DNA of 64,000 bases from Rhodoferax sp. (GTDB taxonomy: Bacteria > Pseudomonadota > Gammaproteobacteria > Burkholderiales > Burkholderiaceae_C), in assembly GCA_046348185.1 (NCBI GenBank), contig JAXMER010000015.1, positions 13,834-77,833 on the forward strand, written 5' to 3'. Position numbers and translations under genes: made by a program. The notes beneath the pieces were generated by a model. That model was not told the DNA's origin. It saw only the letters and a program-made list of their open reading frames with translations, and searched no databases. Numbering within the stretch: the stretch's first letter is position 1; every line of letters starts with the position of its first letter. Positions 1,915 to 56,015 of this stretch are shown here, in pieces.

Positions 1915-2856
1915 TCAGCGCAGGCGCTTGATCAGGCTGCTGGTATCCCAGCGGTTGCCGCCCATGCGCTGCACATCGGCGTAGAACTGGTCGACCAAGG
2001 CTGTCACCGGCAGGCGTGCGCCGTTGCGCTTGGCTTCCTCCAGCACCAGGCCCAAGTCCTTGCGCATCCAGTCCACGGCAAAGCCGAAGTTGAACTGGTC
2101 GGCCACCATGGTCTTGCCGCGGTTGTCCATTTGCCAGCTTTGTGCGGCACCCTTGCCAATCACGTCCAGCACTTGCAGCATGTCCAGGTTGGCGGCCTGG
2201 CCAAAAGCAATCGCTTCCGACAAGCCCTGCACCAGGCCGGCGATGCAGATCTGGTTGACCATTTTGGCCAACTGGCCCGAACCACTTTCGCCCAGCAGGG
2301 TGAATGCGCGTGAAAACGCCATGGCCACCGGCTTGACTGCATCAAATGCTGGCGCATCGCCGCCGCACATCACCGTGAGTTGCCCGTTTTGCGCCCCCGC
2401 TTGCCCACCCGACACCGGGGCATCAATGAAGTGAAGTCCTTCCTGGCGTGCCAGGTCGCTCAATTCGCGCGCCACATGGGCTGAGGCGGTAGTGTGGTCC
2501 ACGAAGATGGCACCGGGCTTCATGCCAGCATAGGCTCCGTCAGGGCCAATGGTGACCGCGCGCAGGTCGTCGTCATTGCCCACGCAGCAAAACACTATGT
2601 CTGCGCCCAGCGCTGCTTGTCGCGGTGTGGGTGCATGTGAGACATTCGTGGTGTTAGCCCCCGAAAACTCTGTACACCATGCTATTGATTTGGTAGCGGT
2701 GCGGTTGTAGACGGTGACGGCATGGCCCGCCTGCGCCAGATGGCCGGCCATGGGGTAGCCCATGACGCCCAGGCCCAGGAAGGCGACGGTGGCAACGGGA
2801 CAGGGCGTGTAGTCCTTGGGGTTGATCGAGGCAGTGGTCATGCGGGAGGGATGCAT
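1915..2856 (-). CDS. NAD(P)-dependent beta-hydroxyacid dehydrogenase (3-hydroxyisobutyrate dehydrogenase family)
   Basis: Rossmann N-terminus VAFLGLGVMGYPMAGHLAQAGHAVTVYNRT and family-typical GSGQLAKMVNQ. Its ATG overlaps the pilU stop (TGATG on the minus strand). Hosts type-1 repeat copy A. Confidence 0.9.
   Translation of the reverse strand: MHPSRMTTASINPKDYTPCPVATVAFLGLGVMGYPMAGHLAQAGHAVTVYNRTATKSIAWCTEFSGANTTNVSHAPTPRQAALGADIVFCCVGNDDDLRAVTIGPDGAYAGMKPGAIFVDHTTASAHVARELSDLARQEGLHFIDAPVSGGQAGAQNGQLTVMCGGDAPAFDAVKPVAMAFSRAFTLLGESGSGQLAKMVNQICIAGLVQGLSEAIAFGQAANLDMLQVLDVIGKGAAQSWQMDNRGKTMVADQFNFGFAVDWMRKDLGLVLEEAKRNGARLPVTALVDQFYADVQRMGGNRWDTSSLIKRLR
2655..2697 (+). repeat. Type-1 43-nt repeat, copy A (inside the dehydrogenase CDS)
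   Basis: TAGCCCCCG AAAACTCTGTACACCAT GCTATTGATTTGGTAGC. Read on the gene strand as ATKSIAWCTEFSGA. Confidence 0.85.
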
Positions 2857-4004
2857 CAGTTCACAGGTGCCAGGCCAGCGCTGGCCAGGCCGCCGGTGTC
2901 GGAAATGTCAGCCTTGCTGCGCTGGCTGTTGAGCTTGATCTGCAGGCGCAGGTCGTTCATGGAATCGGCATTGCGCAGCGCGTCTTCGTAGGTGATGGCG
3001 TTCTTTTCGTAAAGGTCGAACAAGGCTTGATCGAAGGTCTGCATGCCGCCTTGGCGGCTCTTCTTCATGATTTCCTTGATGCCTGCCACCTCTCCCTTGA
3101 AGATCAGATCGGAAATGAGCGGTGAATTGAGCATCACCTCCACCGCCGCTACACGGCCCTTGCCGTCCTGCTTGGGGATTAGACGTTGCGAAATCATGGC
3201 GCGCAGGTTCAGCGACAGGTCCATCAGCAACTGGGCACGGCGCTCCTCGGGGAAGAAGTTGATGATGCGGTCCAGCGCCTGGTTGGCACTGTTGGCGTGC
3301 AACGTGGCCAGGCACAGGTGGCCAGTTTCTGCAAAGGCTACGGCGTGTTCCATGGTCTCGCGGTCGCGGATTTCGCCCATCAGGATCACATCGGGCGCCT
3401 GGCGCAAGGTGTTCTTCAGGGCTGCTTCCCAGCTGTCGGTATCCAGTCCCACTTCGCGCTGGGTGACCACGCAGTTCTTGTGCGCATGCACGAACTCCAC
3501 CGGGTCTTCCACGGTGATGATGTGGCCGTACGAGTTGTCGTTGCGCCAGTCCACCATGGCCGCCAACGTGGTGGACTTGCCCGAACCCGTAGCACCCACC
3601 AGGATGCACAGGCCGCGCTTGGTCATGGATACTTCCTTCAGGATCTGGGGCACGCCCAAACCGTCAATCGTCGGCAAGGTAGTGGGAATCACCCGTGCCA
3701 CCATGCCGACCTTGCCCTGCTGGATGAAGGCGTTGACCCGGAACCGCCCGATGCCCGGCGGCGAGATGGCGAAGTTGCATTCCTTGGTGCGTTCGAACTC
3801 GGCCACCTGTTTGTCGCTCATGACCGAGCGTGCCAGCGACAGGGTGTGCGTGGCGTTCAGGGGTTGGGGAGAAACCTTGGTAACCTTGCCATCGACCTTG
3901 ATCGCTGGCGGAAAGTCGGCTGTGATGAAGAGGTCGCTGCCATTGCGCCCGACCATCAGCTTGAGTAGGTCGTTGATGAATTTGGTGGCTTGATCGCGCT
4001 CCAT
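2856..4004 (-). CDS. pilU: Type IVa pilus retraction ATPase PilU
   Basis: PilT/PilU family with Walker A GATGSGKST. N-terminus MERDQATKFINDLLKLMVGRNGSDLFIT. ATG at 4004 chosen inside ORF 2856..4091. Lies downstream of pilT. Confidence 0.9.
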   Translation of the reverse strand: MERDQATKFINDLLKLMVGRNGSDLFITADFPPAIKVDGKVTKVSPQPLNATHTLSLARSVMSDKQVAEFERTKECNFAISPPGIGRFRVNAFIQQGKVGMVARVIPTTLPTIDGLGVPQILKEVSMTKRGLCILVGATGSGKSTTLAAMVDWRNDNSYGHIITVEDPVEFVHAHKNCVVTQREVGLDTDSWEAALKNTLRQAPDVILMGEIRDRETMEHAVAFAETGHLCLATLHANSANQALDRIINFFPEERRAQLLMDLSLNLRAMISQRLIPKQDGKGRVAAVEVMLNSPLISDLIFKGEVAGIKEIMKKSRQGGMQTFDQALFDLYEKNAITYEDALRNADSMNDLRLQIKLNSQRSKADISDTGGLASAGLAPVN

Positions 4005-4041
4005 GAGAGCACCTACCTTTCTTTGAAAGCAATTTTCCGCA

Positions 4042-4100
4042 GGGCCGCCCCAAGGAAAATTAGCCCCCTTGGGGGGCAGCGACCCGTGCAACGGTGGAGC
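4042..4100 (+). repeat. Type-2 GC-rich hairpin repeat, copy T2a (pilT-pilU intercistronic)
   Basis: GGGCCGCCCCAAGGAAAATTAGCCCCCTTGGGGGGCAGCGACCCGTGCAACGGTGGAGC. Contains the CCCCC-TT-GGGGG and CCCCAAGG/CCTTGGGG inverted repeats. Confidence 0.8.
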
Positions 4101-4112
4101 TTGGGGGTCATA

Positions 4113-5201: not shown

Positions 5202-5912
5202 ATGACCACGATTGCCGAGAATCTCCACTGCGTCCGTCAGCGGATCGCATCAGCCTGTGCCCAGGCACAACGTGCACCGTCGGCGGTGGCCTTGCTGGCG
5301 GTGTCCAAGACCTTTGATGCCGATGCCGTTTTGCAGGCCTATCAGGCCGGGCAGACGGCATTTGGGGAAAACTACATCCAGGAAGCGGTCGACAAGATCG
5401 CCCAGCTGCGCCAGCTGCCGCTGCAATGGCATTGCATCGGCCCGATCCAGAGCAACAAGACACGTTTGGTGGCGCAGCATTTCGACTGGGTGCATACCGT
5501 GGACCGCCTCAAGATCGCGCAGCGCCTGAGCGAGCAGCGCCCCACCGAGTTGCCTGCGCTGCAAGTTTGCATTCAGGTCAACATCGATGGCGGCCCCACC
5601 AAGTCCGGTGTGGCACCTGCACAGGCGCTGGAGTTGGCCCGGGCCGTCGCATCACTGCCGCGGTTGCGGTTGCGCGGGCTAATGTGCATCCCGGAGCCTG
5701 CTCCTGATTTCGTAGCGGCTTGTGCAGTATTTGCAGGGGCTAAAGCCCTATTTGATCAATGCAATCAGGCTGGACTGGAGCTGGATACCCTGTCCATGGG
5801 CATGAGCGACGACCTGGAGGCGGCCATCGCATCGGGCTCCACCCTGGTGCGGGTGGGTAGCGCCATCTTTGGCAAGCGCAGCTACGCGCCGACCTTGGCT
5901 GTCGACGCGTAG
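5202..5912 (+). CDS. yggS: YggS family pyridoxal-phosphate homeostasis protein
   Basis: MTTIAENLHCVRQRI...LLAVSKTF...LSMGMSDDLEAAIASGSTLVRVGSAIFG. Divergent from pilT, as is usual. Hosts type-1 copy I. Confidence 0.92.
   Translation: MTTIAENLHCVRQRIASACAQAQRAPSAVALLAVSKTFDADAVLQAYQAGQTAFGENYIQEAVDKIAQLRQLPLQWHCIGPIQSNKTRLVAQHFDWVHTVDRLKIAQRLSEQRPTELPALQVCIQVNIDGGPTKSGVAPAQALELARAVASLPRLRLRGLMCIPEPAPDFVAACAVFAGAKALFDQCNQAGLELDTLSMGMSDDLEAAIASGSTLVRVGSAIFGKRSYAPTLAVDA
5700..5742 (-). repeat. Type-1 43-nt repeat, copy I (inside yggS), diverged
   Basis: Reverse complement: TAGCCCCTG CAAATACTGCACAAGCC GCTACGAAATCAGGAGC. Read as APDFVAACAVFAGA. Confidence 0.7.
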
Positions 5913-12190: not shown

Positions 12191-15100
12191 ATGACCGTCG
12201 CGCAACGCCTGCCCTTTCCTTATCGACCCGAATCCGAAGTCGTAGCCCAGCGTCTGCAGAGCCTGCACCACAGCCTGGACTGGGCCGCCGCAGCCCGCGT
12301 GGCCGCACCCTGGGTGCAGGCCGTGCGGGACAACCCGCCGCCTTTCTGGGCCATGGAAAGTCTGCTCAAGGAATACCCCATCTCCAGTGCAGAAGGCCTT
12401 GCCCTGATGCGCCTGGCCGAGGCCCTCTTGCGTGTGCCCGATGCCGAAACCGCCATTGCCCTCACCGCCGACCAGCTGGGCCGGGCCGACTTTGACGGCG
12501 CGGGCGACAAGGTGCTGGCGCGCCTTTCCAGCACGGCCATTGCCATGAGCAAGCACTTCTTGCCGCACCCGCAGACTGGCGCGGGCGCACCCGAAGAGCC
12601 CGGGCTGATGGCCAAGCTCGGCGCGCGCACCGTGGTGGCCGCCACCCTGCGCGCGGTGCAGTTGCTGGGGCGCCAGTTCGTGCTGGGCCAAACCATGAAG
12701 GAAGCGCAGCACGAGGCTGCCAGCGCCCGCAAACATGCATCCGTGCGGTTCTCGTACGACATGCTGGGCGAAGGCGCGCGCACCGATGAAGATGCCTTGC
12801 GCTACCTGAAGGCCTATGCCGATGCTATTGAATCCATAGCTGAAAAAGCAGATTTCACGGGGGCTACCGAACAAAATGATGGTATCTCCATCAAACTCAG
12901 CGCTCTGCACTCGCGCTACGAGGACGCGCAAAGCCAGCGCGTCATGGACGAGCTGGTGCCCCGTGTCTGGGGCCTGTGCCAGCAAGCGGCCAAGGCCAAC
13001 ATCAACCTCACCATCGACGCCGAGGAGGTGGACCGCCTGGAACTGTCGCTGGAGGTGTTCGAGGCCCTGCTGGCGCGTGTGGCCGAGCACTGCCCGCAGT
13101 GGCGGGGCTTTGGCCTGGCCATGCAGGCCTACCAGACCCGTGCGCTGGAACTGATCGAGCACCTCACCGCCCTGGCGCGGCGCTACCGCGTGCGCCTGAT
13201 GTGCCGCCTGGTCAAAGGCGCATATTGGGACGCCGAGGTCAAGCGCGCGCAAGAGCTGGGCCTGCCCGGCTACCCAGTGTTCACCCACAAGCACCATACC
13301 GATATCTCCTACCTGGCCTGTGCACGCGCACTGCTGGACGCGCCCGACGCCATCTACCCCCAATTTGCCACGCACAACGCGGGCACCATTGCCGCCATCC
13401 TGCAAATGGGCGCCAAGACGGGGGCCGCATTTGAATTGCAGCGCCTGCACGGCATGGGCGAAGGCGTGTACCGCGAGGTGCTGAAGAACCCCCTGGTGTC
13501 CTGTCGCGTCTACGCGCCGGTGGGCGCCCACCGCGACCTGCTGGCCTACCTGGTGCGTCGCTTGCTGGAGAACGGCGCCAACTCGTCCTTTGTGCACCAA
13601 CTGGCCGACGAAAGCGTGGGCATGGAAGAGCTGCTGATTTCGCCGTTGCGCCTGGAGCACCACGCCAGCCTGCCGCTACCCGCGCACCTGTTCGGCGAGC
13701 ATGCCGGTGCGCGCAAGAACAGCGTGGGCGTGGACCTGACCGTGCCCTCCATGCGCGAGCCGCTCATGGCGGCCCTGGCCAGCGTCGAGGTACCCGTGGT
13801 GCCCGAGGCCGATCTGGCCACCATTGCGCCAGCCTTTGCCCGCGCCGAGGCGGCGGGTTGGGGCTGGCGCAACACCGACGTGGCCCAGCGCAGCGCCATG
13901 CTGCGCGCGGCGGCCGACGCTTTGAGCGAGCGCACCCCGCAGTTCTGCGCCTTGCTGGTGAAAGAGGCGCACAAGACCTGGGGCGACGCCGTTTCTGAGG
14001 TGCGCGAGGCGGTGGACTTCCTGCGCTACTACGCCGATGAGGCCCAGCGCATCATGCAGCCGCTGGCGCAGCCGCAGGTGCATGGCGTGCCCGCTGGTGC
14101 GCAGCCCTGGGGCGTGACGGGTGAGACCAACACGCTCACCCTGACGGCGCGCGGTGTGTGGGTATGCATCAGCCCCTGGAACTTTCCGCTGGCCATCTTC
14201 ATGGGCCAGGTTGCCGCAGCGCTGGCCACCGGCAATACCGTGTTGGCCAAGCCTGCCGAGCAGACGCCGGGCGTGGCACTGGAAGCCGTGAAGCTGATGC
14301 ACGCCGCAGGTATCCCGGTGGATGCGTTGCAACTGCTGCATGGCGCGGGCGAAACCGTGGGTGCCGCCCTGGTGGCGCAGCCGCGTGTGGCCGGTGTGGT
14401 GTTTACCGGCTCCACCCAGGTGGCCAAGATCATCCAGCGCGCCCTGGCCGCCAAGGATGGCCCCATCGTGCCGCTGATCGCCGAAACCGGTGGTATCAAC
14501 GCCATGCTGGTCGACAGCAGCGCGCTGCCCGAGCAGGTGGTCGATGCCGTGGTGCAAAGTGCGTTCCGCTCCGCCGGCCAGCGCTGCTCGGCCCTGCGTC
14601 TTCTGTGTGTGCATGAGAGCATTGCCGACGGCGTCATCGCCATGCTGCAAGGGGCTGCGCAAGAACTGGCGGTGGGCGATACCGCCGACCTGGCCACCGA
14701 CGTGGGGCCGGTCATCGACCGCGAGGCCTACGACAACATCCAGCGCCACCTGCAGCGCCTGCATGCACAGGCAAAAGTACTAGTAGCCCCCGGCAATACT
14801 GGTTACAAAGCTACCAAAACCATAGCAAATCTGGTGCCGCCCCACGCCTTCGAGGTCAGCGGCATTGCCGACGTCAGCGCAGAAATCTTCGGCCCGGTGC
14901 TGCAAGTGGTGCGCTGGGGGGGCGACCCGGCCGATGTGATCGCCCAGGTCAACGCATTGGGCTACGGCCTGACGCTGGGCATTCAGACCCGCATCGACTC
15001 CCGCGCCCAGGCGCTGGCGCGGGCCGCCCATGTGGGTAACGTGTACATCAACCGCAACATGATCGGGGCCGTGGTGGGCGTGCAGCCCTTTGGTGGCGAG

Positions 15101-15229: not shown

Positions 15230-15460
15230 GGCTCGAGACGATGATCGACGTCTCAAACCGGACCTTGACAAGCTGGCGTTTTTGACGTTTTCGGATTGTT
15301 TTGGGTGTGGGCGTTTCAGGCGAAAGTTGGCGTGGTTGCTTTGGCGTAAAGTACCCAGCTAGCTTTTGAAAGACACGTCCCTATGGTTCGCGCACCCACC
15401 ACCAAACCCCCTAAAGAAGCACTGCTGGAATTCCGAGGATGAACCTGCAGGAGTAGAAGC

Positions 15461-17128: not shown

Positions 17129-17292
17129 GAGCTTACGAGAGAATTTTGAGGGATAACCTCCATTAGGTTATATAAATCAATAACTTAGGCTCAAATAAGT
17201 TCCGTTGGGGAACCCCGCATGCTCACAGGTCCAGTGCCACCAAAAGACTCTCAACCTCTATTTCTTGAATGGATCAGGAATTCGAAGGGGCT

Positions 17293-17676: not shown

Positions 17677-18531
17677 TTACATCAGGGAAAAATCGCGCTC
17701 AAAGCGCATCAGGTGCTGGCCGCCGTCGACCAGTAGGGTGGTGCCGGTCAGCGACTGGTTGGTCAGCGCGAACAGCACGGCGCTGGCCACATCCTGCGCG
17801 GTGCTGGAGCGCCCCAGAGGCGAGAGCCGGTGCAGCGCTTCGAACTTGTCTTGCGAGAGCAGGTGGCTGGTGAGCGTGAGGCCCGGCGCCACACCCACCA
17901 CGCGCATGCGCGGAGCCAGCGCCAGCGCCAGCATGGTGGTGGCGGCTTCCAGCGCCGCCTTGGACAGGGTGTAGCTGAAAAAGTCAGGATTCTGGTTCCA
18001 CAGCTTCTGGTCCAGCAGGTTCACGACGACACCGGGTCCTCGCGCTCCACCGTTGCACGGATCGCTGCCCTCCGAGGGGGCGGACTCTCCTTGGGTCGGC
18101 CCGGCGGGGAGTTGCTCGCGTCCAGCGAGATGGTTGTGCAGGGCCTGCGCCAGCAGGATGGGTGCGGCCGTGTTGGTATGCAGGTGCTGGTTCAGCGTGG
18201 CAAAGCTAAAGCCATCCACCGTGTCATGCTCAAAAACCGAGGCGCTGTTGACCACGGCGTCCAGATGCCCGAACTGTTGTACCACCTGCGGCACCAGGGC
18301 GCGTACCGCCGCCTCGTCGGCCAGGTTGGCACAAAATGCGGCGCTAGCCCCCGATAAAGCTGAACATGCTGCTACGGTATCCATAGCATCAACTTCGGAA
18401 TGGCGGTAGTGCACGGCCACGCGCCAGCCGGCGCGCGCCAGCGTGAGCGCGATCTCGCGGCCCAGGCGCTTGGCCGCGCCGGTGACCAGCACGGTGGGGG
18501 GCGTTGAGACAGACGGTTGTGGGGTTGGCAT
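17677..18531 (-). CDS. SDR family oxidoreductase, pteridine/dihydromonapterin reductase-like
   Basis: VLVTGAAKRLGREIALTLARAGWRVAVHYRHS. Adjacent to folB. ATG 18531 preferred over the TTG at 18540. Hosts type-1 copy D and type-2 copy T2b. Confidence 0.85.
   Translation of the reverse strand: MPTPQPSVSTPPTVLVTGAAKRLGREIALTLARAGWRVAVHYRHSEVDAMDTVAACSALSGASAAFCANLADEAAVRALVPQVVQQFGHLDAVVNSASVFEHDTVDGFSFATLNQHLHTNTAAPILLAQALHNHLAGREQLPAGPTQGESAPSEGSDPCNGGARGPGVVVNLLDQKLWNQNPDFFSYTLSKAALEAATTMLALALAPRMRVVGVAPGLTLTSHLLSQDKFEALHRLSPLGRSSTAQDVASAVLFALTNQSLTGTTLLVDGGQHLMRFERDFSLM
18044..18102 (-). repeat. Type-2 GC-rich hairpin repeat, copy T2b (in frame inside the SDR CDS)
   Basis: The reverse complement matches T2a at 51 of 59 positions in an ungapped alignment (hand count). 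Translated within the gene as AGPTQGESAPSEGSDPCNGGA. Confidence 0.85.
18345..18387 (+). repeat. Type-1 43-nt repeat, copy D (inside the SDR CDS)
   Basis: TAGCCCCCG ATAAAGCTGAACATGCT GCTACGGTATCCATAGC. Read on the gene strand as AMDTVAACSALSGA. Confidence 0.85.
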
Positions 18532-21275: not shown

Positions 21276-22043
21276 CTACCAGTACGGGGCAAAGAACGGC
21301 TCCAGCTCCACCAGGGCGTCGTCGATCATCTCGGGCAGGGCCTGGGCAAAGCAGTCCAGCAGCACCACGGCATTGGGGCTGGAGTCGCTGGCGGCGGCTT
21401 CGCGCAGGCGTTTGCTCAGTCCCAGGTTGACCTGGTGCAGGCCGCGGTAGCGCTGGCGCAGGCCGTCCAGGTCGTAATCGGCAACCCCGCCCTTGCGTTC
21501 TACGAAAAACTGTGCCAGCAAGTACATGGAGGCGGCGCGGTAGGCGGTTTCGGTCTCGTTGGCCAGCGGCAGGTGAAAGCGTGCCATGGGGCGCAAGAAC
21601 GCGGTCTGCGGGCAGCCCGAGGTGGCGATGAGCAGGCCCATCAGGCTGCTGATGGCGCGCTGCGCGCTGGTGCGGGCGGTGGTGGTGCGCTCGCCGGTGA
21701 TAACGGTCAGCTCCACCTGCTCAAAGGAGCTCAGGCTGGCGCTCCAGTCCAGCAAGTCGGCCATGCGCAGGGCGGCCGGGCACTGCGCGGTTTGCGCAGC
21801 CTGCAGCGGACAGTGCGTGCATTGGTGGCGGCCCAGCGCAGCCCAAGCGGGCGTGTCGGTGCGCTGCGTATCCAGCGGTTGCAGGGTCTGCGCGTCGAAT
21901 GCAAGCGCAAACGCCGTCGTGGTGCCGTCGCCGGCGGTAAAGCGGTATTCGATATGCCAGGTGTTCATGCCCGCCAGATGCGCTGCTTGCTGTGGTGGGT
22001 GGTGCGCCAGTATGGCACGCCAGCGACTGTAGTCCATGCGCAA
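21276..22043 (-). CDS. Conserved hypothetical protein (Cys motif CTHCPL...QCP)
   Basis: Long ORF downstream of, and co-oriented with, the LysR gene. No family recognised. Alternative start at 21968 (MNTWHIEYRF). Confidence 0.55.
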   Translation of the reverse strand: MRMDYSRWRAILAHHPPQQAAHLAGMNTWHIEYRFTAGDGTTTAFALAFDAQTLQPLDTQRTDTPAWAALGRHQCTHCPLQAAQTAQCPAALRMADLLDWSASLSSFEQVELTVITGERTTTARTSAQRAISSLMGLLIATSGCPQTAFLRPMARFHLPLANETETAYRAASMYLLAQFFVERKGGVADYDLDGLRQRYRGLHQVNLGLSKRLREAAASDSSPNAVVLLDCFAQALPEMIDDALVELEPFFAPYW

Positions 22044-22057
22044 GGAAAATCAGCCAG

Positions 22058-22100
22058 TAGCCCCCGTAAATACGCATGATGTTGCTACAGAAATTGTAGC
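22058..22100 (+). repeat. Type-1 43-nt repeat, copy E (intercistronic)
   Basis: TAGCCCCCG TAAATACGCATGATGTT GCTACAGAAATTGTAGC. The palindrome is perfect. Lies between the LysR stop and the next gene's start. Confidence 0.9.
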
Positions 22101-22108
22101 TATGGCAT

Positions 22109-29971: not shown

Positions 29972-31206
29972 TCAGCCATCGCGGCAAGCCGCGCCGCGCG
30001 GATTCGCTTGCCAATGTCTGGGCCACTAGCCCCCGTGGATTGGGCTAGTGCAGCTATCGAATCAGTAGCAACCCGTAGCGTGGTGTGCAAGGCTTGCAGT
30101 AGCCGCGGGCGTTGCGGGTACGGTGCGTCTTGCTGGCCCAGGCGGCCGCGCGCATCGCACTCGCAAGCCAGCAACACCTCGGCAAAGCGATCCGGCTTGC
30201 GGATGGCGTCGCAGCGCTCCAGCAAACGCAGCACGGCATCCGCCCCAAATTCCAGGCTGCGGTGAATGTTGCCGTGTTCGCGTGCCACCACCTCGGCTAG
30301 CTCACGGCAGTCGTTAGGGATGCGCAGGGGAATCTTTTTCAGCGAGCGCACGCTGCGTTCCTCGTGTCCGATATGGCGTGGCAGCACATCAACGGGGGTC
30401 GTGCCCTTGCCCAGGTCGTGGGTCAGGCAGGCAAACCGTACCGGCAGGCTGGCTCCCAGCCGTGCGGCCATGTCCAGCACCAGCATCACATGCACGCCGG
30501 TGTCAATCTCGGGGTGGTAGTCCGGGCGCTGGGGTACGCCCCACAGGCGGTCCAGGTCGGGCAACAGATGCGCCAGAGCGCCGCAGTCGCGCAGGACGGC
30601 GAACATGCGCGATGGTTGCTTCTCCATCAGGCCGCGCGCGAGTTCCTGCCAGACGCGCTCGGGCACCAGGTGGTCGGTCTCGCCAGCGTCCACCATGGCG
30701 CGCATCAAGGCCAGGGTTTCGGGGGCCACGGTAAAGTCGGCAAAGCGCGCAGCAAAACGGGCCAGGCGCAGGATGCGCACCGGGTCTTCCCGAAAGGCGG
30801 GGGTGACGTGGCGTAGCACTTTGGCCGCGATGTCGCGCTGTCCTCCATAGGGGTCTACCACGTCTTTTTGGGAAAACTGCCCGGTAGCCCCCGTTAAGTC
30901 TGCATGTATTGCTATTGAATTGATAGTAAGATCGCGTCGGGCCAGATCCGCTTCCAGGGTAACGTCGGGTGCGGCGTGCACGGCAAAACCGCGGTAGCCA
31001 CCCGCTGTGTTGCGCTCGGTGCGTGCCAGAGCGTATTCCTCGTGCGTTTGTGGGTGCAGGAAGACGGGAAAGTCGCGCCCCACCGGGGTGAAACCCTGCG
31101 CCAGCAGTTGCGCGGGCGTGGCCCCCACGACCACCCAGTCGCGGTCTTGCATGGGCAAGCCCATCAGGGCGTCGCGCACCGCACCACCGACCAGGTACAC
31201 CTCCAT
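29896..31206 (-). CDS. cca: Multifunctional CCA-adding enzyme (tRNA nucleotidyltransferase with HD domain)
   Basis: MEVYLVGGAVRDALMGLPMQDRDWVVVG, RRDLTIN and HDLGK. Hosts type-1 copies F and G. Its 3' end overlaps the convergent TPR gene by 76 nt. Confidence 0.93.
   Translation of the reverse strand: MEVYLVGGAVRDALMGLPMQDRDWVVVGATPAQLLAQGFTPVGRDFPVFLHPQTHEEYALARTERNTAGGYRGFAVHAAPDVTLEADLARRDLTINSIAIHADLTGATGQFSQKDVVDPYGGQRDIAAKVLRHVTPAFREDPVRILRLARFAARFADFTVAPETLALMRAMVDAGETDHLVPERVWQELARGLMEKQPSRMFAVLRDCGALAHLLPDLDRLWGVPQRPDYHPEIDTGVHVMLVLDMAARLGASLPVRFACLTHDLGKGTTPVDVLPRHIGHEERSVRSLKKIPLRIPNDCRELAEVVAREHGNIHRSLEFGADAVLRLLERCDAIRKPDRFAEVLLACECDARGRLGQQDAPYPQRPRLLQALHTTLRVATDSIAALAQSTGASGPDIGKRIRAARLAAMADQLSQSEPPPAEPPSSQDASAMPKF
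30027..30069 (+). repeat. Type-1 43-nt repeat, copy G (inside cca, 3' part)
   Basis: TAGCCCCCG TGGATTGGGCTAGTGCA GCTATCGAATCAGTAGC. Read as ATDSIAALAQSTGA. Confidence 0.85.
30885..30927 (+). repeat. Type-1 43-nt repeat, copy F (inside cca, at the RRDLTIN motif)
   Basis: TAGCCCCCG TTAAGTCTGCATGTATT GCTATTGAATTGATAGT. Read as TINSIAIHADLTGA. Confidence 0.85.
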
Positions 31207-44418: not shown

Positions 44419-44512
44419 GGAATGGTGACTGGGTTTGTTTCGTGGTAGTTGGAATGGCAAGGGGCTGGCTTCTCCATTTTCTGGAACAGCGGCTGTATGC
44501 AAAATGTGCCAG

Positions 44513-44555
44513 TAGCCCCCGTGGAATAATATTCTGTAGCTACGAAATCAGTAGC
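44513..44555 (+). repeat. Type-1 43-nt repeat, copy H (intercistronic)
   Basis: TAGCCCCCG TGGAATAATATTCTGTA GCTACGAAATCAGTAGC. Lies between the thioesterase stop and the isochorismatase-family gene start. Confidence 0.9.
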
Positions 44556-44557
44556 AA

Positions 44558-44968
44558 TCAGCGCTTGGGGATCTCCCGCGGCTGGCCGTTCTGGTCGATG
44601 GCGACATAGGTGAGCGTGGCTTCGGTCACTTTGACGTGGTTGCCCTGGGCGCTCATGCGCTCGGCGAACACCTCCACCTTCACGGTGATGGAGGTGCGCC
44701 CGATCCGGCTCACCTTGGAATAGAAGCTCAGGATGTCGCCCACGCGCACTGGCTGCTTGAAGACGAATTCGTTCACCGCCACGGTGGCAAAGCGCCCGTG
44801 CGTGTACCGCGCAGGCAGCACGGCGCCGGCCAAGTCCACCTGAGCCATGACCCAACCGCCAAAGATGTCGCCGTTGGCGTTGCAATCGGCGGGCATGGGA
44901 ATGACCTTCAGGACCAGTTCTTCATCGGATGGGGGGGTGGCGGTAGCGGGCGGTGTGTCGGGGTTCAT
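44558..44968 (-). CDS. Acyl-CoA thioesterase (YciA-like)
   Basis: DCNANGDIFGGWVMAQVDLAGAV...RIGRTSITVKVEV. ATG 44968 chosen. Confidence 0.88.
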   Translation of the reverse strand: MNPDTPPATATPPSDEELVLKVIPMPADCNANGDIFGGWVMAQVDLAGAVLPARYTHGRFATVAVNEFVFKQPVRVGDILSFYSKVSRIGRTSITVKVEVFAERMSAQGNHVKVTEATLTYVAIDQNGQPREIPKR

Positions 44969-44987
44969 GGGGTGCGGGTTGGGTTGA

Positions 44988-46256
44988 ATGGATGTGACAG
45001 TGCAGCTGACATTCTGGCGTAACAATGGGGCTGTGTCCGATTCCTCTTCCAATGACTACCGCCCCGGCTGGATTCTGGGGCTCTCGCTGGCGCAGCTGAT
45101 CAGCTGGGGAACGCTGTTTTACGTTTTCGCGTTGTTGATCGAGCCCGTGGAACGCGACCTGGGCCTGAACCGCGTGCAGAGTTCACTGGCCTTCAGCCTG
45201 GCCCTGTTGACGGAAGGCATGGCGGCGTATCCGGTGGGGCGCTGGATCGACCGGGGGCTGGAGCGAGCGGTGATGGTGGGTGGTTCGCTGCTGGCCGCGC
45301 TGTGCCTCGGCTTGCACCGCTGGGTGGACACGGCGGCGGGCTTTTATGCGGTGTGGATGGGTGTGGGCGCGGCCATGGCCTGCGTGCTCTACAACCCGGT
45401 TTTTGCCGTGGTGACGCGGCGCTTTCCGTTGCACTTTCGCCGCGGCATCATCACCATGACCTTTCTGGGCGGCTTGGCCAGCACAGTGTTCATCCCGGCG
45501 GGCGACTGGCTCATCCGCCACCTGGGCTGGCGCGAAGCCCTGCAGGTGCTGGCTGGCCTGCATCTGCTGCTGTGCGCGCCGCTACATGCGTGGCTGCTGC
45601 GAGGGGCAACACCCAATGGGGCCGATGCACATGCAGCGCGCGCCGACGCCCCCGCCGACCGCAGCCCGGTGCGCGAACTGTTGCGTTCGACCCCATTCGT
45701 AGGCGTCAGCGCGTTCCTGCTGCTGATGACGGTGGCCACGGCTTCGCTGCCGGTGCACATGATCAGCCTGCTGCGCGAGCACGGGCTGGCGCAGCAATGG
45801 GTGGTGGCGGTGCCAGCACTGATTGGCGTGTTCCAGGTGCTGGGGCGCTTGCTGCTGTACTTCTTCGAACACCGCATGGACATACACGCCGCCAACCGGG
45901 TGATTCCGGCCTTGATTCCATTGGGATTGGCGGCACTGTTGGTGTCACCCTGGCTGGGCGATGCCCACCAGGCAGTGGTGGTGTTGTTCGTTGTGCTGTT
46001 TGGCATCGGCAACGGCATGCTCACGATTGTCAAAGGCACGGCCATGGCCGAGTACGTGAGCGTGCAGCATGTGGCGGTGCTCAATGGGTTGTTGGGTTTG
46101 CCGTTGGCGCTGGTGCGCGCGCTGGCACCGCTGGCGCTGGGCTGGGCCTGGAGCCTCTCGGGCGGCTACGGCGGCGCGCTGGCGGTGATGGTGTGCCTCA
46201 CCTTGGTGGGGGTATGGTCGCTGGTGCAGGCGCAGCGCGGCGGGCGCGCCCCATAA
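44988..46256 (+). CDS. MFS transporter
   Basis: About 12 hydrophobic segments and a YPVGRWIDRG loop motif. Start uncertain. Confidence 0.8.
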   Translation: MDVTVQLTFWRNNGAVSDSSSNDYRPGWILGLSLAQLISWGTLFYVFALLIEPVERDLGLNRVQSSLAFSLALLTEGMAAYPVGRWIDRGLERAVMVGGSLLAALCLGLHRWVDTAAGFYAVWMGVGAAMACVLYNPVFAVVTRRFPLHFRRGIITMTFLGGLASTVFIPAGDWLIRHLGWREALQVLAGLHLLLCAPLHAWLLRGATPNGADAHAARADAPADRSPVRELLRSTPFVGVSAFLLLMTVATASLPVHMISLLREHGLAQQWVVAVPALIGVFQVLGRLLLYFFEHRMDIHAANRVIPALIPLGLAALLVSPWLGDAHQAVVVLFVVLFGIGNGMLTIVKGTAMAEYVSVQHVAVLNGLLGLPLALVRALAPLALGWAWSLSGGYGGALAVMVCLTLVGVWSLVQAQRGGRAP

Positions 46257-46274
46257 TCGGGCTATTTGGCCGCC

Positions 46275-48125
46275 ATGCGCAACCACGGACGTTTCGCTTC
46301 CGACGCTCCTGCGTCGCCCCTCCCTCACGCGCCCCGGTCGGACTGGCAGACGATCCGGCGCCTGTTTCCCTACCTGTGGACCTATAAATGGCGGGTGATG
46401 GGGGCCATCGCCCTTATGGTGGCGGCCAAGCTGGCCAACGTGGGCGTACCGCTGTTGCTCAAGCAGTTGGTGGATGCCATGACGCCAGCGCCCGTGGGCG
46501 TGGCCACTGCCGTGCTGGTCGTGCCAGCGACCCTGCTGCTAGCCTACGGGGCGCTGCGACTGTCGACCACACTCTTTACGGAGCTGCGCGAAGTGGTGTT
46601 TGCCAAGGCCACGCAAGGCGCGGCGCGGCGCATTGCGCTGGAAACCTTCAACCATTTGCACGCGCTGAGCCTGCGTTTTCATCTGGAGCGCCAAACCGGT
46701 GGCATGACGCGCGACATCGAGCGCGGTGTGCGTGGCATCGAATCGCTGCTATCGTTTTCCATGTTCAACGTGGTGGCCACGCTGATCGAAGTAGCCATGG
46801 TGCTGACTATTCTGGCCTTCAAGTTCGATGCGGGGTTTGCCTGGATCACAGTGGGGGCCTTGAGCATCTACATCGCGTTCACAGTGGGCATTACCGAGTG
46901 GCGCACCAAATTTCGCCGCGAGGCCAACGAGTTCGATTCGGCCGCGCATTCCAAGGCCATTGATTCGTTGTTGAACTACGAGACGGTCAAGTACTTCAAC
47001 AACGAAGCTTTCGAGGCCGAACGCTACGACACCAGCCTGGAGCGCCTGCGCCGCGCGCGCCTGAAGTCGCAAACCACGCTGTCGCTACTCAACACCGGCC
47101 AGCAGCTCATCATCGCCACGGGACTGGTGGCCATGCTCTGGCGCGCCACGCAGGGGGTGGTGGATGGGCGCCTGACATTGGGTGACCTGGTCATGGTCAA
47201 CGCCTTCATGATCCAGATCTATATTCCGCTGAACTTCCTGGGCGTGATCTACCGCGAGATCAAGCAAAGCCTGACCGACCTGGACAAGATGTTCACGCTG
47301 ATGGAGCGCGAGCGCGAAGTGGCCGATGCACCTGGTGCCCAGCCGCTGGCGCTACCCCAAGGGCAGGTCAGCGTGCGCTTTGAGAACGTGCGCTTTGCCT
47401 ACGACGCGCAAGGTCCATCGCAGCAAGGGCGCACCATCTTGCATGGCATCAGCTTCGACATTCCGGCGGGCAAGACGGTGGCCGTGGTGGGGCCATCGGG
47501 TGCGGGCAAGTCCACCCTGGCGCGCCTGCTCTACCGCTTCTACGATGTGAGCAACCCCGAAGAGGGCGGCTGCATCCGCATCGCCGGGCAGGACATTCGT
47601 GCGGTGACGCAAGACAGCGTGCGTCGCGCCATCGGTATCGTGCCGCAAGACACCGTGTTGTTCAACGACACGGTGGAATACAACATCGCCTATGGCCGCC
47701 CCGGCGCCAGCACGGAACAGGTGCAGGAGGCCGCGCGCGCCGCCCACATTCACGACTTCATCACCGCCACGCCCAAGGGCTACGCCACCATGGTCGGTGA
47801 ACGCGGCCTCAAGCTCTCCGGCGGCGAGAAGCAACGCGTGGCTATCGCCCGCACCCTGCTCAAGAACCCGCCCATCCTGATCTTCGACGAAGCCACTTCG
47901 GCTCTGGACAGCGCCAACGAGCGCGCCATCCAGGCCGAACTGCAATCCGCCGCGCGCGGCAAGACCACGCTGGTGATTGCGCACCGCCTCTCCACCGTGG
48001 TGGATGCACACGAAATTTTGGTGCTGGAGGGTGGCCACATTGTGGAGCGGGGCACGCACGCCGCGCTGTTGGCCGCTAACGGGCGTTATGCCCAGATGTG
48101 GGCGCTGCAGCAGTCGGGGGAGTAG
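46275..48125 (+). CDS. ABC transporter, fused permease/ATPase (ATM1/HMT1-type exporter)
   Basis: Six-TM domain, Walker [10 protein letters not shown], signature [13 protein letters not shown], Walker [16 protein letters not shown] 46275 preferred over the TTG at 46266. Confidence 0.92.
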
Positions 48126-48145
48126 TTTGCAGGGTTTTTGGCAGT

Positions 48146-48188
48146 TGGCCCGCGAATTGATTGGAAGTGCAGCTATTAGAACGATAGC
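48146..48188 (+). repeat. Type-1 43-nt repeat, copy K (intergenic), diverged head
   Basis: TGGCCCGCG AATTGATTGGAAGTGCA GCTATTAGAACGATAGC. Spacer and palindrome are close to copy G. Confidence 0.7.
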
Positions 48189-48225
48189 ATAGCGGATTCA
48201 TGCAAACGCCGCATAATCCGCTTCC

Positions 48226-49206
48226 ATGGAAACCAAATGGCTTGAGGATTTTGTTTCGTTGGCCGAGACGCGCAGTTTCAGCCGCTCGGCTCAGTTGCGC
48301 CACGTTACGCAACCGGCGTTTTCGCGGCGTATTCAGTCGCTGGAGGCCTGGGCGGGCACCGACCTGGTGGACCGCAGCAGCTATCCCACGCGTCTGACGC
48401 CGGCAGGCGAGACGTTATATGCCCAGTCGCTGGAGATGTTGCAATCGCTGCAGACCACGCGCGCCATGTTGCGCGGGCACACCTCTGCGGCGCAGGACGT
48501 GATCGAATTTGCCGTGCCGCATACCCTGGCCTTTACCTTTTTTCCTGCCTGGGTGTCGAGCTTGCGCGAGACCTTTGGCCCTATCAAAAGCCGCCTGATT
48601 GCACTCAACGTGCATGATGCCGTGATGCGCCTGGTGGAGGGCAGCTGCGACCTGCTCATTGCCTACCACCATCCCTCCCAGCCGTTTCAGCTTGACCCGG
48701 AGCGCTACGAGATGGTGAGCCTGGGCGAGGAGCTGGTGGCGCCGTATGTCAAACCCGACAGCAGCGGCGCACCGCTGTACCAGCTGCCAGGCCGCCCCGG
48801 CCAGCCACTGCCTTACCTGGGCTACGCGCCCGGTGCCTACCTGGGGCAGATGGTGGATCTCATTCTCAAGCAGTCGCAAACGGCCATTCATTTCGACCGT
48901 GTCTATGAAACCGACATGGCCGAGGGCCTGAAGGCCATGGCACTCGAAGGGCACGGCATTGCCTTTCTGCCTTCTAGCGCGGTCAAGAAAGAGCTGCGCG
49001 CCAAGCGCTTGGTGAGTGCGGTTCCATCCCATATCACCGGCTTGCAGATCACCATGGATGTGCGGGTGTACCGCGAAAAACCGGTGCAACGCGAAACCGG
49101 GCGCGCGGTGGCGGTGGTGCCGCGCGGCCACGCAGGGGCGGCCGCGCCCAAGCGCAGTGCGCAAGCCCTGTGGGATTACCTGCTGGCGCAGTCGCAAAAG
49201 GCCTGA
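48226..49206 (+). CDS. LysR family transcriptional regulator
   Basis: METKWLEDFVSLAETRSFSRSAQLRHVTQPAFSRRIQSLEAWAG. Confidence 0.92.
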   Translation: METKWLEDFVSLAETRSFSRSAQLRHVTQPAFSRRIQSLEAWAGTDLVDRSSYPTRLTPAGETLYAQSLEMLQSLQTTRAMLRGHTSAAQDVIEFAVPHTLAFTFFPAWVSSLRETFGPIKSRLIALNVHDAVMRLVEGSCDLLIAYHHPSQPFQLDPERYEMVSLGEELVAPYVKPDSSGAPLYQLPGRPGQPLPYLGYAPGAYLGQMVDLILKQSQTAIHFDRVYETDMAEGLKAMALEGHGIAFLPSSAVKKELRAKRLVSAVPSHITGLQITMDVRVYREKPVQRETGRAVAVVPRGHAGAAAPKRSAQALWDYLLAQSQKA

Positions 49207-49345: not shown

Positions 49346-50374
49346 ATGAACACCCTTACCATCACCCGCCCCGACGACTGGCATCTGCACGTACGCGACG
49401 GTGCAGCCCTCTGCACTGTGGTGCCGCACACGGCGGCGCAGTTTGCCCGCGCCATCATCATGCCCAACCTGAAGCCACCGGTCACCACGGCGCAGCAGGC
49501 ACTGGCCTACAAGCAGCGCATCCTGGCGGCGGTGCCTGCTGGAGTTTCGTTCGAACCGCTGATGACGCTGTACCTGACCGACAACCTGCCCCCCAGCGAA
49601 ATCGCTGCGGCCAAGGCCGCCGGTGTGGTGGCATGCAAGCTGTACCCGGCTGGCGCCACCACCAACAGCGATGCCGGCGTGACCGACTTGCGCAAGATCT
49701 ACCCCGTGCTCGAAGCCATGCAACGCGAAGGCCTGTTGCTGCTGGTGCATGGGGAAGTCACCTCGCCCGACATCGACCTGTTCGACCGCGAGGCCGTATT
49801 CATCGACCAACAATTGAAGCCCTTGCGCCGCGATTTCCCCGGCCTGAAGATTGTGATGGAGCACATCACCACCCGCGAAGCCGCCGACTACGTGGCCAGC
49901 GCCGACGCCAACCTGGGCGCCACCATCACCGCGCACCACCTGCTCTACAACCGCAATGCCATCTTCACTGGCGGCATCCGCCCGCACTACTACTGCTTGC
50001 CGGTCTTGAAGCGCGAGGTGCACCGCCAGGCCCTGGTACGTGCTGCCACCGGTGGCAATCCGAAGTTCTTTCTGGGCACGGACAGCGCACCGCATCCGGT
50101 GCATCTGAAGGAGCACGCCACCGGGTGCGCCGGTTGCTACACCGCCCATGCGGCCATGGAGCTGTACGCCCAGGCCTTTGATGCGGCTGGAGCGCTCGAC
50201 CGTCTGGAAGGCTTTGCTTCTCTTTTTGGCGCCGATTTCTACGGCCTGCCACGCAACACCGGCACGCTGACTCTGCGCCGCGAAAGCTGGACGCCGCCCG
50301 AACGCTTTGCCTTTGGCGACGCCGAACTCAAGCCCCTGGCGGCGGGCGAGGCACTGGCGTGGCGAGCCGCATAA
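49346..50374 (+). CDS. pyrC: Dihydroorotase (homodimeric type)
   Basis: [14 protein letters not shown]...AIIMPNL...[11 protein letters not shown]...FLGTDSAPH. Confidence 0.95.
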
Positions 50375-51135
50375 TCGTCCCCCTGCACCATATCAACTGG
50401 ACCGCACCCTGGCTGGCCTGCTGGCGCGATCTGGGCGAGCCCCTGGCGCAGCAGGTGTTGCAGGGCCAGGCGCAACCCGATGCACTCAATACCGCCGCGC
50501 TGGCCCCGGTGCGTTTTGTGCCGCAATTGGAGCTGCCTGAAGGCCGGGCCTACGAGCAGCATATCTTTGCGACCGGCTGTGTACCTACCCGCGAAGGGCT
50601 GCACGATTTCTTCAATGGCCTGGTGTGGATGCGTTTTCCCTTGGCCAAGCGCGCCTTAAACCGCTTGCAGGCCAGCCAAATCGCGCAAGATGGCGTAGGC
50701 GCCAGGCGCGGCGCTGTGCGCGACGCCATCACGGTGTTGGACGAGAACGGCGCTTTGCTGCAGGCGCCCGATGCGCTGTGGAAGGCGCTGGTGCGCAAGG
50801 ACTGGGCGGCCGTGTTTGGGGAACTGCGCCCGATGTGGCAGCAGACCCGTCTGGTCCTGTTTGGTCATGCGCTGATGGAGCAGCTGGTATTCCCCAGAAA
50901 ACCCATTACAGCCCACGTCGTTGCTGTACCTGAAGCTATCGAAACGATAGCGCATTGGGACCAGTGGCTGTCCGACCGGGTCAGTGCACCGTGGCTGGCG
51001 GCCAAGCCCTTTGCCCACCTGCCGGTGCTGGGTGTACCCGGATGGTGGCGCCCCAATGAAGATCCTGCCTTCTACGACGACGCACAGGTTTTCCGGCCCC
51101 TGCGCCCAATCCCCCAGCGGGCAAAGGCACATTGA
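50359..51135 (+). CDS. DUF3025 domain-containing protein
   Basis: [49 protein letters not shown]. Overlaps the pyrC end by 16 nt. Hosts type-1 copy L. Confidence 0.75.
50909..50951 (+). repeat. Type-1 43-nt repeat, copy L (inside the DUF3025 CDS), diverged head
   Basis: CAGCCCACG TCGTTGCTGTACCTGAA GCTATCGAAACGATAGC. Read as [15 protein letters not shown]. Confidence 0.7.
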
Positions 51136-54760: not shown

Positions 54761-54774
54761 CCAGGATTGTTTTC

Positions 54775-55956
54775 ATGCGCGAAGCCGTCATCGTTTCCAC
54801 CGCCCGTACGCCCCTGACCAAGGCCCACCGCGGCGAATTCAACATCACCCCCGGCCCCACCCTGGCGGCCTTTGCCGTGCAGGCCGCGGTGCAGCGCGCG
54901 GGTATCGATCCAGCCCTGATCGAAGACACCATCCTGGGCTGCGGCTACCCCGAGGGCACCACCGGGCGCAACGTGGCACGCCAGACCGTGATTCGCGCCG
55001 GGCTGCCGCTGTCCATCGCGGGTACCACGGTCAACCGCTTCTGCGCCTCAGGCCTGCAATCCATCGCCATGGCGGCCGGGCGCATCGTGCTCGATGGTGC
55101 CCCGGCCATGATTGCCGGGGGGGTTGAGAGCATTTCAGGCATTCGCGCCCGCGACGATGCCAACTCCGGCATGGACCCCTGGATCGTGGAACACAAGCCC
55201 GACCTGTACATGGCCATGATCGACACCGCCGACATCGTGGCCCAGCGCTACGGCATTAGCCGCGAGGCGCAGGACCGCTTCTCGGTGGAAAGCCAGCGCA
55301 AGACCGCCGAGGCCCAGGCCGCCGGGCGCTTTGCCGACGAAATCGTGCCCTGCACCACGGTTATGGCCGTAACCGACAAGGCCACCGGCACAGTCAGCCA
55401 GCGCGAGGTAACAGCCACCGCCGACAACTGCAACCGCCCTGGCACCTCGTACGAAAGTCTGGCCAAGCTCGAACCGGTGAAGGGGCCGGACAAGTTCATC
55501 ACCGCTGGCAATGCCTCGCAGTTGTCGGATGGCGCCAGCGCCTGTGTGCTGATGGAGGCGCGCGAAGCCGAACGTCTGGGCCTGTCGCCCCTGGGCGCCT
55601 TCCGGGGTCTGGCCGTGGCCGGCTGCGAGCCCGACGAGATGGGCATCGGCCCCGTGTTCGCGGTGCCGAAGCTGCTGGCCCGCCATGGCCTCACGGTGGA
55701 CGATATCGACCTGTGGGAGCTGAACGAGGCTTTTGCCTCCCAATCCATCTACTGCCAGCAGCGACTGGGTATCCCGGACGAGCGCCTCAACGTCAACGGC
55801 GGCGCCATCTCGGTGGGCCATCCCTTCGGCATGACCGGCGCGCGCCTGGTCGGCCATGTGTTGCTCGAAGGCCGTCGGCGCAAGGCCAAGTACGCGGTGG
55901 TCACCATGTGCATCGCTGCGGGCATGGGCGCGGCGGGGTTGTTCGAGGTGTTTTGA
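54775..55956 (+). CDS. Acetyl-CoA C-acyltransferase (thiolase)
   Basis: [22 protein letters not shown]...[11 protein letters not shown]...[18 protein letters not shown]. Confidence 0.95.
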
Positions 55957-55972
55957 ACAAGAAATGGGACGG

Positions 55973-56015
55973 TAGCCACCGTGAAATATGCCTAGATTGC
56001 TATGACATTCATAGC
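55973..56015 (+). repeat. Type-1 43-nt repeat, copy N (intergenic, downstream of the thiolase gene)
   Basis: TAGCCACCG TGAAATATGCCTAGATT GCTATGACATTCATAGC. Sits at the point where GC content drops. Confidence 0.85.

Follow-up and report, generated by a model that had tools for sequence, protein, structure and literature searches.

A 65-bp composite DNA motif in genes and spacers of Rhodoferax and related betaproteobacteria: a candidate uptake-signal-like recognition site

The 64-kb window of a Rhodoferax sp. genome analysed here (the whole stretch of 64,000 nucleotides from contig JAXMER010000015.1, to which all positions refer unless a locus is named) raises the question of why one low-GC sequence of constant layout recurs in it twelve times, within housekeeping genes as well as in the spacers between genes. 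The sequence-only reading of this DNA had described a 43-nt repeat family with a fixed layout and had not recognised it as a named one. The data presented below indicate that the motif is real, apparently undescribed and present in a group of betaproteobacteria from freshwater and wastewater. As to its nature, we favour, tentatively, a double-stranded, bend-dependent protein recognition site that may accumulate in place by molecular drive, in the manner of the uptake signal sequences (USS) of the Pasteurellaceae and the DNA uptake sequences (DUS) of the Neisseriaceae, but longer and composite.

A search of the window with the degenerate motif pattern yielded 11 exact matches, as opposed to none in 100 dinucleotide-preserving shuffles, and a profile built from these 11 sequences recovered a twelfth copy with the head CAGCCCACG at position 50909 and the tail at 50935-50951. 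The family of 12 copies, as well as its frequency above the shuffled expectation, was thereby borne out. The core is laid out as TAGCCCCCG-N17-GCTAY-N7-RTAGC, and both the 17-nt and the 7-nt spacing are identical in all twelve copies, exactly as proposed before. The head 9-mer TAGCCCCCG occurs nine times in the window, compared to 0.49 occurrences expected, and lacks a tail in only one of these nine cases; this solitary head is located at 1269-1277 on the minus strand and corresponds to about the chance level. The tail occurs ten times, with 0.06 occurrences expected, and a head or head variant is present 17 nt upstream of every one of them. The co-occurrence of head and tail at fixed spacing indicates that both belong to one composite unit. 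Head-only and tail-only sites are essentially absent, three separated invariant blocks extend over the 43-nt core, and the scores of a position weight matrix are strongly bimodal, with 12 sites of the window reaching at least 25 bits and none lying between 5 and 25 bits. Ten of the twelve copies are oriented along the plus strand, eight are located inside open reading frames (ORFs) and four are intergenic. Neither tandem arrays nor adjacent inverted doublets or pairs were present among the copies listed for the window and for related loci of other genomes (designated L with a number), all of which are isolated units.

A total of 183 in-register copies, collected by the profile search in the window and the related loci, provided the basis for a conservation profile. 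With the head as reference, conserved sequence spans approximately positions -20 to +45, and the full unit therefore comprises about 65 bp. The layout of the 43-nt unit assumed at first stands but its length does not, and the A-tract that had been noticed in about half of the copies is an A- or T-tract upstream of approximately 10 of the 12 window copies, as read by eye. The 65-bp consensus sequence TTTATAAGnCAAATnGGCCTC-TAGCCCCCG-TggAAtacTGCGCAAGCA-GCTATtaAATtaATAGC-Aa contains no T-run and has a GC content of about 45% according to a manual count on the consensus, and that of the window ranges from 57 to 67%, which agrees with the earlier description of the copies as A/T-rich islands in GC-rich DNA. 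The density amounts to about 0.19 copies per kb, or approximately one copy per 5 kb.

The eight copies inside coding sequences had been assigned to named housekeeping genes, and the Pfam domains of the host ORFs agree with these names, comprising a 3-hydroxyisobutyrate-type dehydrogenase, a YggS-like Ala_racemase_N protein, PutA (two copies), a short-chain dehydrogenase/reductase (SDR), CCA (two copies) and DUF3025. With coordinates given for the 65-bp span throughout, copy 1 (2635..2699, plus strand, head at 2655) is placed within the NAD-binding dehydrogenase gene 1915-2856 (minus strand) in antisense orientation and encodes TATKSIAWCTEFSGANTTNVSH, and copy 2 (5698..5762, minus strand), the head TAGCCCCTG of which is read downwards from 5742, lies antisense in the yggS-like gene 5220-5912 (plus strand) and encodes PAPDFVAACAVFAGAKALFDQC. 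The putA gene (12191-15229, plus strand) contains copy 3 (12822..12886, minus strand) in antisense orientation at PutA site 1, encoding DAIESIAEKADFTGATEQNDGI, and copy 4 (14764..14828, plus strand) in sense orientation in a variable loop, PutA site 2, encoding AKVLVAPGNTGYKATKTIAN and recurring at the orthologous position in L002 and L228. Copy 5 (18325..18389, plus strand) is antisense in the SDR gene 17677-18540 (minus strand) and encodes DAMDTVAACSALSGASAAFCAN. Two further antisense copies are located in the cca gene (29896-31206, minus strand): copy 7 (30007..30071, plus strand) at CCA site 2, encoding VATDSIAALAQSTGASGPDIGK and having orthologous copies in L024, L225, L226 and L227, and copy 8 (30865..30929, plus strand) at CCA site 1, encoding LTINSIAIHADLTGATGQFSQK, with orthologous copies in L004, L024, L225, L226 and L227. 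Copy 11 (50889..50953, plus strand), which carries the head CAGCCCACG and is the weakest of all, is located in sense orientation in the DUF3025 gene 50359-51135.

Comparison of these host proteins with motif-free homologues points to an origin of the genic copies by substitution at pre-existing, partly compatible codons, not by insertion. PutA site 1 has the same length in 120 of 120 close homologues, and an alignment of the window protein (DAIESIAEKADFTGATEQNDGISIKLSALH) with the Bradyrhizobium PutA of PDB entry 3HAZ (AIETIGKAA-GNHALPDRPGISVKLSALH; AIETIGKAA-GNHALPDRPGI) contains a single-residue gap and pairs AIESIA with AIETIG. CCA site 2 is likewise of equal length in 120 homologues. In the locus L224, derived from a metagenome-assembled genome (MAG) of Polaromonas, this site is motif-free, unchanged in length and written in the GC-rich codons GTG GCG ACC GAC GCG GTG GCG GCA CGG GCC TTG GCG GCC GGC CAG AGC, compared to GTT GCT ACT GAT TCG ATA GCT ... 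ACG GGG GCT AGT in the motif-bearing species including the window organism. At the DUF3025 site, most motif-free orthologues match the length found in the window. PutA site 2, as a variable loop, exhibits small indels only (8 residues compared to 3HAZ). CCA site 1 overlays the universally conserved motif RRDLTIN[AS][IM]A, and the conserved Thr codon of RRDLTIN fixes the tail variant ATAGT of copy 8; the remainder of the site falls into a loop exceeding the most frequent form by 10 residues, and equally long loops also occur without the motif peptides. Since PutA site 1, CCA site 2 and the DUF3025 site keep the motif-free length, an insertion of the type known from miniature inverted-repeat transposable elements (MITEs) or Rickettsia palindromic elements (RPEs) is unlikely for the genic copies. 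A peptide motif was rejected as well, given that intergenic sites account for four window copies and for most copies elsewhere, and that the genic ones are found in both orientations.

The codon composition of the window likewise differs between element-covered and other coding DNA. The codon ATA specifies 7 of 13 isoleucine residues (54%) inside the elements versus 29 of 669 (4%) outside, GCT accounts for 47% of the alanine codons inside versus 8% outside, and the GC content of third codon positions is 0.38 in element-covered codons versus 0.79 elsewhere. The genic copies use essentially two reading frames, the antisense one of which reads A-[IT]-x-x-[IV]-A ... [TSA]-G-A-[TS] .... At the two CCA sites of six species, third-position bases belonging to the motif core share 76% pairwise identity, compared to 57% for flanking third positions with the same residue (p = 7e-9, the pairs not being independent) and 41% for third positions of the element outside the core. 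A constraint acting on the motif at the DNA level thus overrides the coding of these genes.

With respect to the form in which the motif is recognised, the 183 aligned copies provided no covariation in support of a hairpin. The closing pair 31/39 of the 5-bp 'stem' in the tail is non-Watson-Crick in 33% of the copies, and the pairs 17/26, 18/25 and 19/24 of a putative TGC-GNRA-GCA hairpin are of the Watson-Crick type in only 53-62%, without compensation. When the consensus and four window copies were folded as single strands, the z values lay between +0.4 and -1.3 and were no better than those of shuffled sequences. The strongest statistical couplings connect adjacent bases. Rfam yielded no match, neither for the window at the gathering threshold nor for eight loci with a cutoff of E<=1. 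Position -1 is occupied by G in 31% and by C in 53% of the copies, and a 5' GTAG is accordingly not conserved. The upstream tract reads AAA in 113 copies and TTT in 48, and this interchangeability suggests a readout of DNA shape by a protein. Peaks of A/T-rich sequence were detected at about -19, -9.5, +1.5, +14, +23, +35 and +45, with a Fourier maximum at 10.5-11 bp. The recurrence of the A/T tracts every 10.7 bp or so makes it probable that a single protein or complex recognises the site in a bent or wrapped state. The rigid spacing together with the AAA/TTT exchange also suggests DNA that bends around a protein or is wrapped on it, with base-specific contacts that would be made at the G/C blocks. 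When checked by eye, the consensus showed no convincing match to the IHF consensus or to sigma-70 hexamers.

The motif has no polarity with respect to strand or genes. Local GC skew on the strand of the element is positive in 52% of 171 copies, and the intergenic copies are distributed over the four possible arrangements of flanking genes in the numbers 14/18/15/19. In the 118 other loci about 28% of the copies lie wholly within a gene, and about 19% extend across the end of one. A polar motif of the KOPS or Chi type is excluded, because the orientation is unrelated to GC skew, and a promoter, terminator or operator was rejected since the copies follow neither the starts and ends of genes nor their direction. 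A caveat on this non-polarity is the mild local co-orientation of copies (10 of 12 window copies on the plus strand, and 44 of 71 neighbouring pairs within loci), which is explained neither by GC skew nor by gene direction. Some short spacers consist almost wholly of the element. In L048 (1500-3300), three consecutive short spacers contain one copy each, all in the same orientation; they are flanked by ORFs for proteins of 239 aa, 363 aa (which we take to be DAHP synthase-like from its sequence) and 115 aa and for a large membrane protein.

When every GTDB species was represented by one genome, the strict form of the motif was matched in at least 118 stretches (L001-L118). Among the matches listed, all genus-named records belong to the Comamonadaceae or close relatives (Rhodoferax, Polaromonas, Ramlibacter and 'Ca. 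Egaibacter'), and the others are MAGs labelled only as Burkholderiales, Pseudomonadota, beta- or Gammaproteobacteria. Strict matches are carried, for instance, by the isolates Rhodoferax sp. TS-BS-61-7 and Polaromonas sp. P2-4 (closed genome CP087965.1), and the nearest named relatives of the window according to PutA are 'Ca. Aalborgicola defluviihabitans' and Rhodoferax, with 84% amino acid identity. Copies at orthologous positions were found in species sharing about 75% nucleotide identity, and three further CCA-bearing loci contain 3-4 copies per 21 kb. A copy in a GlmU-type gene with NTP_transferase and hexapeptide domains was also observed, apparently at the same position, in three genomes (L225:1596-1663, L226:2569-2633 and L227:5347-5423). 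The phylogenetic distribution is nevertheless patchy. In 80 orthologous metagenome loci (762 kb) with an anchor protein 71-88% identical, only 8 matches of at least 15 bits were detected, versus 12 in the window alone; several of these 8 are at positions orthologous to window sites (the DUF3025 site and the spacer between the ABC transporter and LysR genes). These motif-poor loci contain about 21 sites per Mb scoring between 5 and 50 bits, with none in shuffled sequences. In L224, CCA site 1 has decayed, the head being lost while tail and spacer remain, and a weak relic adjoins the 4HBT gene, comparable to copy 9 of the window. The occurrence of motif-poor relatives with relics indicates that the signal is maintained in some lineages and left to decay in others.

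According to the reading that we favour, the element would be a double-stranded recognition signal of about 65 bp rather than a mobile repeat, in which the G/C blocks GGCC, TAGCCCCCG, TGC, AGCTA and TAGC are held at fixed spacing with A/T tracts between them. New copies would arise in place wherever the genome already resembles the signal, housekeeping genes included, and substitutions toward the consensus would become fixed despite rare codons and some amino acid changes. Most likely, the drive would be that DNA from relatives is preferentially taken up or processed when it bears the motif and then undergoes homologous recombination, and lineages losing the recogniser would let their copies decay. 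That a protein reads the site and that an uptake bias supplies the drive is what we infer; a drive that acts on pre-existing sequence, on both strands, against codon bias and in some cases against protein sequence, and that can be lost, has its precedent in USS and DUS, for which reason the uptake-signal-like reading is favoured.

The comparison with USS and DUS, jointly called DNA uptake-enhancing sequences (DUES), is instructive in both directions. In USS, A/T tracts in phase with the helix lie on the flanks of a G/C-rich core, an architecture that the motif shares. Both USS and DUS are over-represented genome-wide on both strands, are enriched in spacers and originate by substitution, likewise in agreement with the motif. 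They are present in genes and spacers, occupy permissive protein regions in biased frames and are common to related genera (bioRxiv 10.1101/2025.10.24.684340), all of which also applies to the motif. In contrast, competent cells take up USS and DUS preferentially by way of a receptor specific for them (ComP or, as predicted, a minor pilin), whereas the motif resides in Comamonadaceae, a family with no described uptake specificity. Genes of competence-related families occur near cca in motif-rich genomes (TfoX_N at L225:2813-3205 and PilM at L227:1-220), but these are common genes and do not constitute evidence.

Several observations weigh against an uptake-signal-like site. The core of 43 nt (about 65 bp in total), with its three invariant blocks and an internal 5-N7-5 palindrome, is much longer and more information-rich than the 9-12 bp cores of uptake sequences. 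Its density is lower than the value of approximately 1 per kb known for USS and DUS by a factor of about five, and all copies are singletons, whereas USS and DUS frequently form inverted pairs acting as terminators. A gradual drive might have left more intermediates than the bimodal scores and the virtual absence of half-sites indicate. Moreover, the spacer consensus GCTGCTTGCGCA, which encodes AACA, recurs in several genic copies, and the peptide IAACA is encoded by the spacer in the yggS, SDR and CCA copies, which hints at templated copying. In the one intergenic comparison of filled and empty sites, at 48146, the element is present in the window, L151 and L156, and the corresponding spacers of L120, L121 and L160 are about 75-85 nt shorter, which amounts to extra DNA of that length at the filled site. 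Finally, a literature search for uptake sequences, repeats or RAYT in Comamonadaceae and Polaromonas found nothing relevant, and the head 9-mer appeared only in unrelated contexts among the matches listed.

An architectural or topological site maintained by selection is a conceivable alternative, which we consider rather doubtful. It would involve a nucleoid-associated protein, a topoisomerase (as at a strong gyrase-type site) or a chromosome-organising factor that wraps about 65 bp, and each copy would be kept because the array matters for chromosome structure. The phased A/T tracts over 65 bp, the rigid spacing and the equivalence of AAA and TTT do suggest wrapped DNA; the occurrence of about one copy per 5 kb in genes and spacers alike, irrespective of promoters, and the conservation of core bases beyond that of third codon positions in the flanking gene are further points in its favour. 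With its very high information content, the site would be more suited to a nucleoprotein complex of large size than to a receptor associated with a pilus. However, many relatives, including some with an anchor protein 85-88% identical, have lost the motif or keep relics only, with no sign of a replacement, which would be unexpected if the chromosome depended on it. In addition, selection on each of about a thousand sites would be very weak, yet codon bias is overridden and residues of housekeeping proteins are changed.

An ancient non-autonomous mobile or templated repeat, now immobile, is an unlikely explanation. Such an element would have resembled repetitive extragenic palindromes (REPs) and their hairpin-forming doublets (REPINs), MITEs or RPEs and would have spread by transposition or ectopic gene conversion, with the genic copies derived from short-patch conversion of partly similar sequence. 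The all-or-none composite with its bimodal scores, the spacer consensus retained even in genic copies, the 75-85 extra nucleotides at copy 10 relative to three relatives, and the short spacers made up nearly entirely of the element, such as the three consecutive ones of L048, would all be accounted for in this way. REPINs decay after loss of the REP-associated tyrosine transposase (RAYT, of the IS200/IS605-type Y1 group), and the relics described above may likewise belong to lineages that have lost a partner enzyme. REPs and REPINs moreover resemble the motif as short, high-copy, spacer-filling sequences with a TAG(C)-type head beside a palindrome that stay in place at orthologous positions and are subject to decay in some lineages. 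They are, however, extragenic and characterised by a stable covarying hairpin, a conserved GTAG, inverted doublets and populations of nearly identical copies within a genome, whereas one third to two thirds of the motif copies are intragenic and the motif is low in GC. The analogy to REP and RAYT drawn in the sequence-only reading finds no support in view of the mispaired stem, the folding values at the level of shuffled sequences and the G before TAG in less than a third of the copies. A tblastn search with RayT of Escherichia coli for the cognate gene that REPs typically flank, covering 1.8 Mb of window and loci, retrieved nothing better than E = 1.6. RPEs and other in-frame MITEs, e.g. the Correia or NEMIS elements, share with the motif the location within intact protein-coding genes, but they possess terminal inverted repeats and target-site duplications, and RPEs contribute an inserted peptide segment, whereas the motif overlays native residues (TIN[AS]IA in CCA and AIE[ST]I[AG] in PutA) that are conserved as far as Bradyrhizobium. 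The suggested parallel to RPEs fails since the genic copies are not in-frame insertions and gained no element-sized length, the host proteins keeping the length of their motif-free homologues. No terminal inverted repeats are evident, conservation stopping at -20 and +45, and the filled/empty site near 48146, the one site examined, showed no duplication of the target. The identity of non-core positions is 42.5% for copies within a genome and 42.1% between genomes (p = 0.22), so that there is no evidence of recent amplification, and a recent MITE burst is out owing to this lack of within-genome clustering and to the length-neutral genic copies. Only 23 viral contigs contained a strict match, a number that is uninformative in itself. 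With regard to the genic copies, the convergence by substitution and the AAA/TTT exchange also point away from the earlier view, which took the 43 nt for a homologous sequence and not for two half-sites of proteins.

A structured RNA or transcription signal (small RNA, terminator, promoter or attenuator), to which the intergenic consensus TGC-GCAA-GCA as a possible GNRA hairpin and the 5-bp stem with its 7-nt loop might have pointed, is already largely refuted and highly improbable, as there is no Rfam match, the hairpin pairs are uncompensated, folding z values range from -0.6 to +0.4 for some copies and reach -1.3 at most, the orientation to genes is random with 30-67% of the copies in coding sequences on either strand, and a T-run is lacking; an RNA element, like a polar motif, is excluded by these data.

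The motif also does not correspond to a described family, neither Rfam nor the searchable literature containing a description of it, as the sequence-only reading had supposed. The BRE repeat, reported from Bordetella and from the Comamonadaceae Polaromonas JS666 and Rhodoferax ferrireducens, is mostly intergenic with some copies in coding sequences and comprises about 90 bp with 69% GC, often in tandem as a variable number tandem repeat, in tens of copies (Hot et al. 2011, PMC3110155). It is the only betaproteobacterial repeat that we found reported from these genera. The identity of motif and BRE was rejected, since the motif, at about 65 bp and about 45% GC, is non-tandem and much more frequent; this distinction is based on the description of BRE, not on its sequence. 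HIP1 (GCGATCGC) of cyanobacteria is an over-represented palindrome that permeates coding sequences through substitution and is conserved more than the codons require, and the motif behaves likewise. HIP1, however, is a simple 8-bp palindrome linked to methyltransferases, in contrast to the long asymmetric composite described here.

The four intergenic copies of the window are all located on the plus strand. Copy 6 (22038..22102) takes up the spacer of 65 nt that separates the DUF6901 gene (21276-22043, minus strand) from a LysR gene (22109-23038, minus strand), and its tail is a perfect palindrome. Copy 9 (44493..44557) is located between an isochorismatase gene (43879-44502, minus strand) and a 4HBT thioesterase gene (44558-45052, minus strand). 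Copy 10 (48126..48190), with the head TGGCCCGCG, separates an ABC transporter gene (46266-48125) from a LysR gene (48226-49206). An inverted repeat GCGGATT...AATCCGC (48189-48225) is present downstream of copy 10 and just upstream of the LysR gene start, and its part CATAATC(C/G)C is kept in the element-free loci L120, L121 and L160; this repeat is probably the native LysR promoter or operator and not part of the motif. In copy 12 (55953..56017), with the head TAGCCACCG at 55973, the 43-nt core starts 17 nt past the thiolase gene (54775-55956), the last 4 bases of which also belong to the 5' flank of the 65-bp span.

Copy 12 is the last copy of the window and lies at the border of a copy-free low-GC block (56066-64000; GC 0.57-0.61), which may be an island and contains long ORFs without Pfam domains except for a leucine-rich-repeat protein (60274-61506). 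A further region without a motif copy encodes a 555-aa protein with Schlafen/AlbA_2 and HATPase_c_4 domains (15461-17128, plus strand; GC 0.58). The segment of about 2 kb around it (approximately 15229-17293) is missing in the close relative L228, which shares about 88% nucleotide identity on both sides, and has the appearance of an accessory insertion. Likely accessory sequence amounting to about 10 kb contained no copies versus about 2 expected, a depletion that is not significant.

Sequence-biased DNA uptake has been described in only two bacterial families, both host-associated, and a survey from 2025 regards uptake-enhancing sequences as a feature of the Neisseriaceae and Pasteurellaceae (bioRxiv 10.1101/2025.10.24.684340). 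The motif could be a third, independently evolved family of this kind in environmental Comamonadaceae (the Rhodoferax, Polaromonas and 'Ca. Aalborgicola' group), although this further step is on balance improbable. If it held, the bent composite site of 65 bp would be unprecedented and would imply a kind of receptor other than ComP, and the drive would have the strength to alter both the loops and the codons of housekeeping enzymes. Given a third case, in bacteria that abound in freshwater, glaciers and wastewater, the origin and the cost of a 'self tag' could be tested in a new system, and a new receptor would be indicated. For genome analysis, the motif is a ready phylogenetic marker of the lineages that carry it, and low-GC islands of rare codons in housekeeping genes of these bacteria represent neither foreign DNA nor assembly errors, which is to be considered in annotation and in analyses of selection. 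Even if the recogniser were an architectural protein or a topoisomerase, the motif would be a non-coding DNA signal that overrides codon usage and protein sequence at many positions of core genes.

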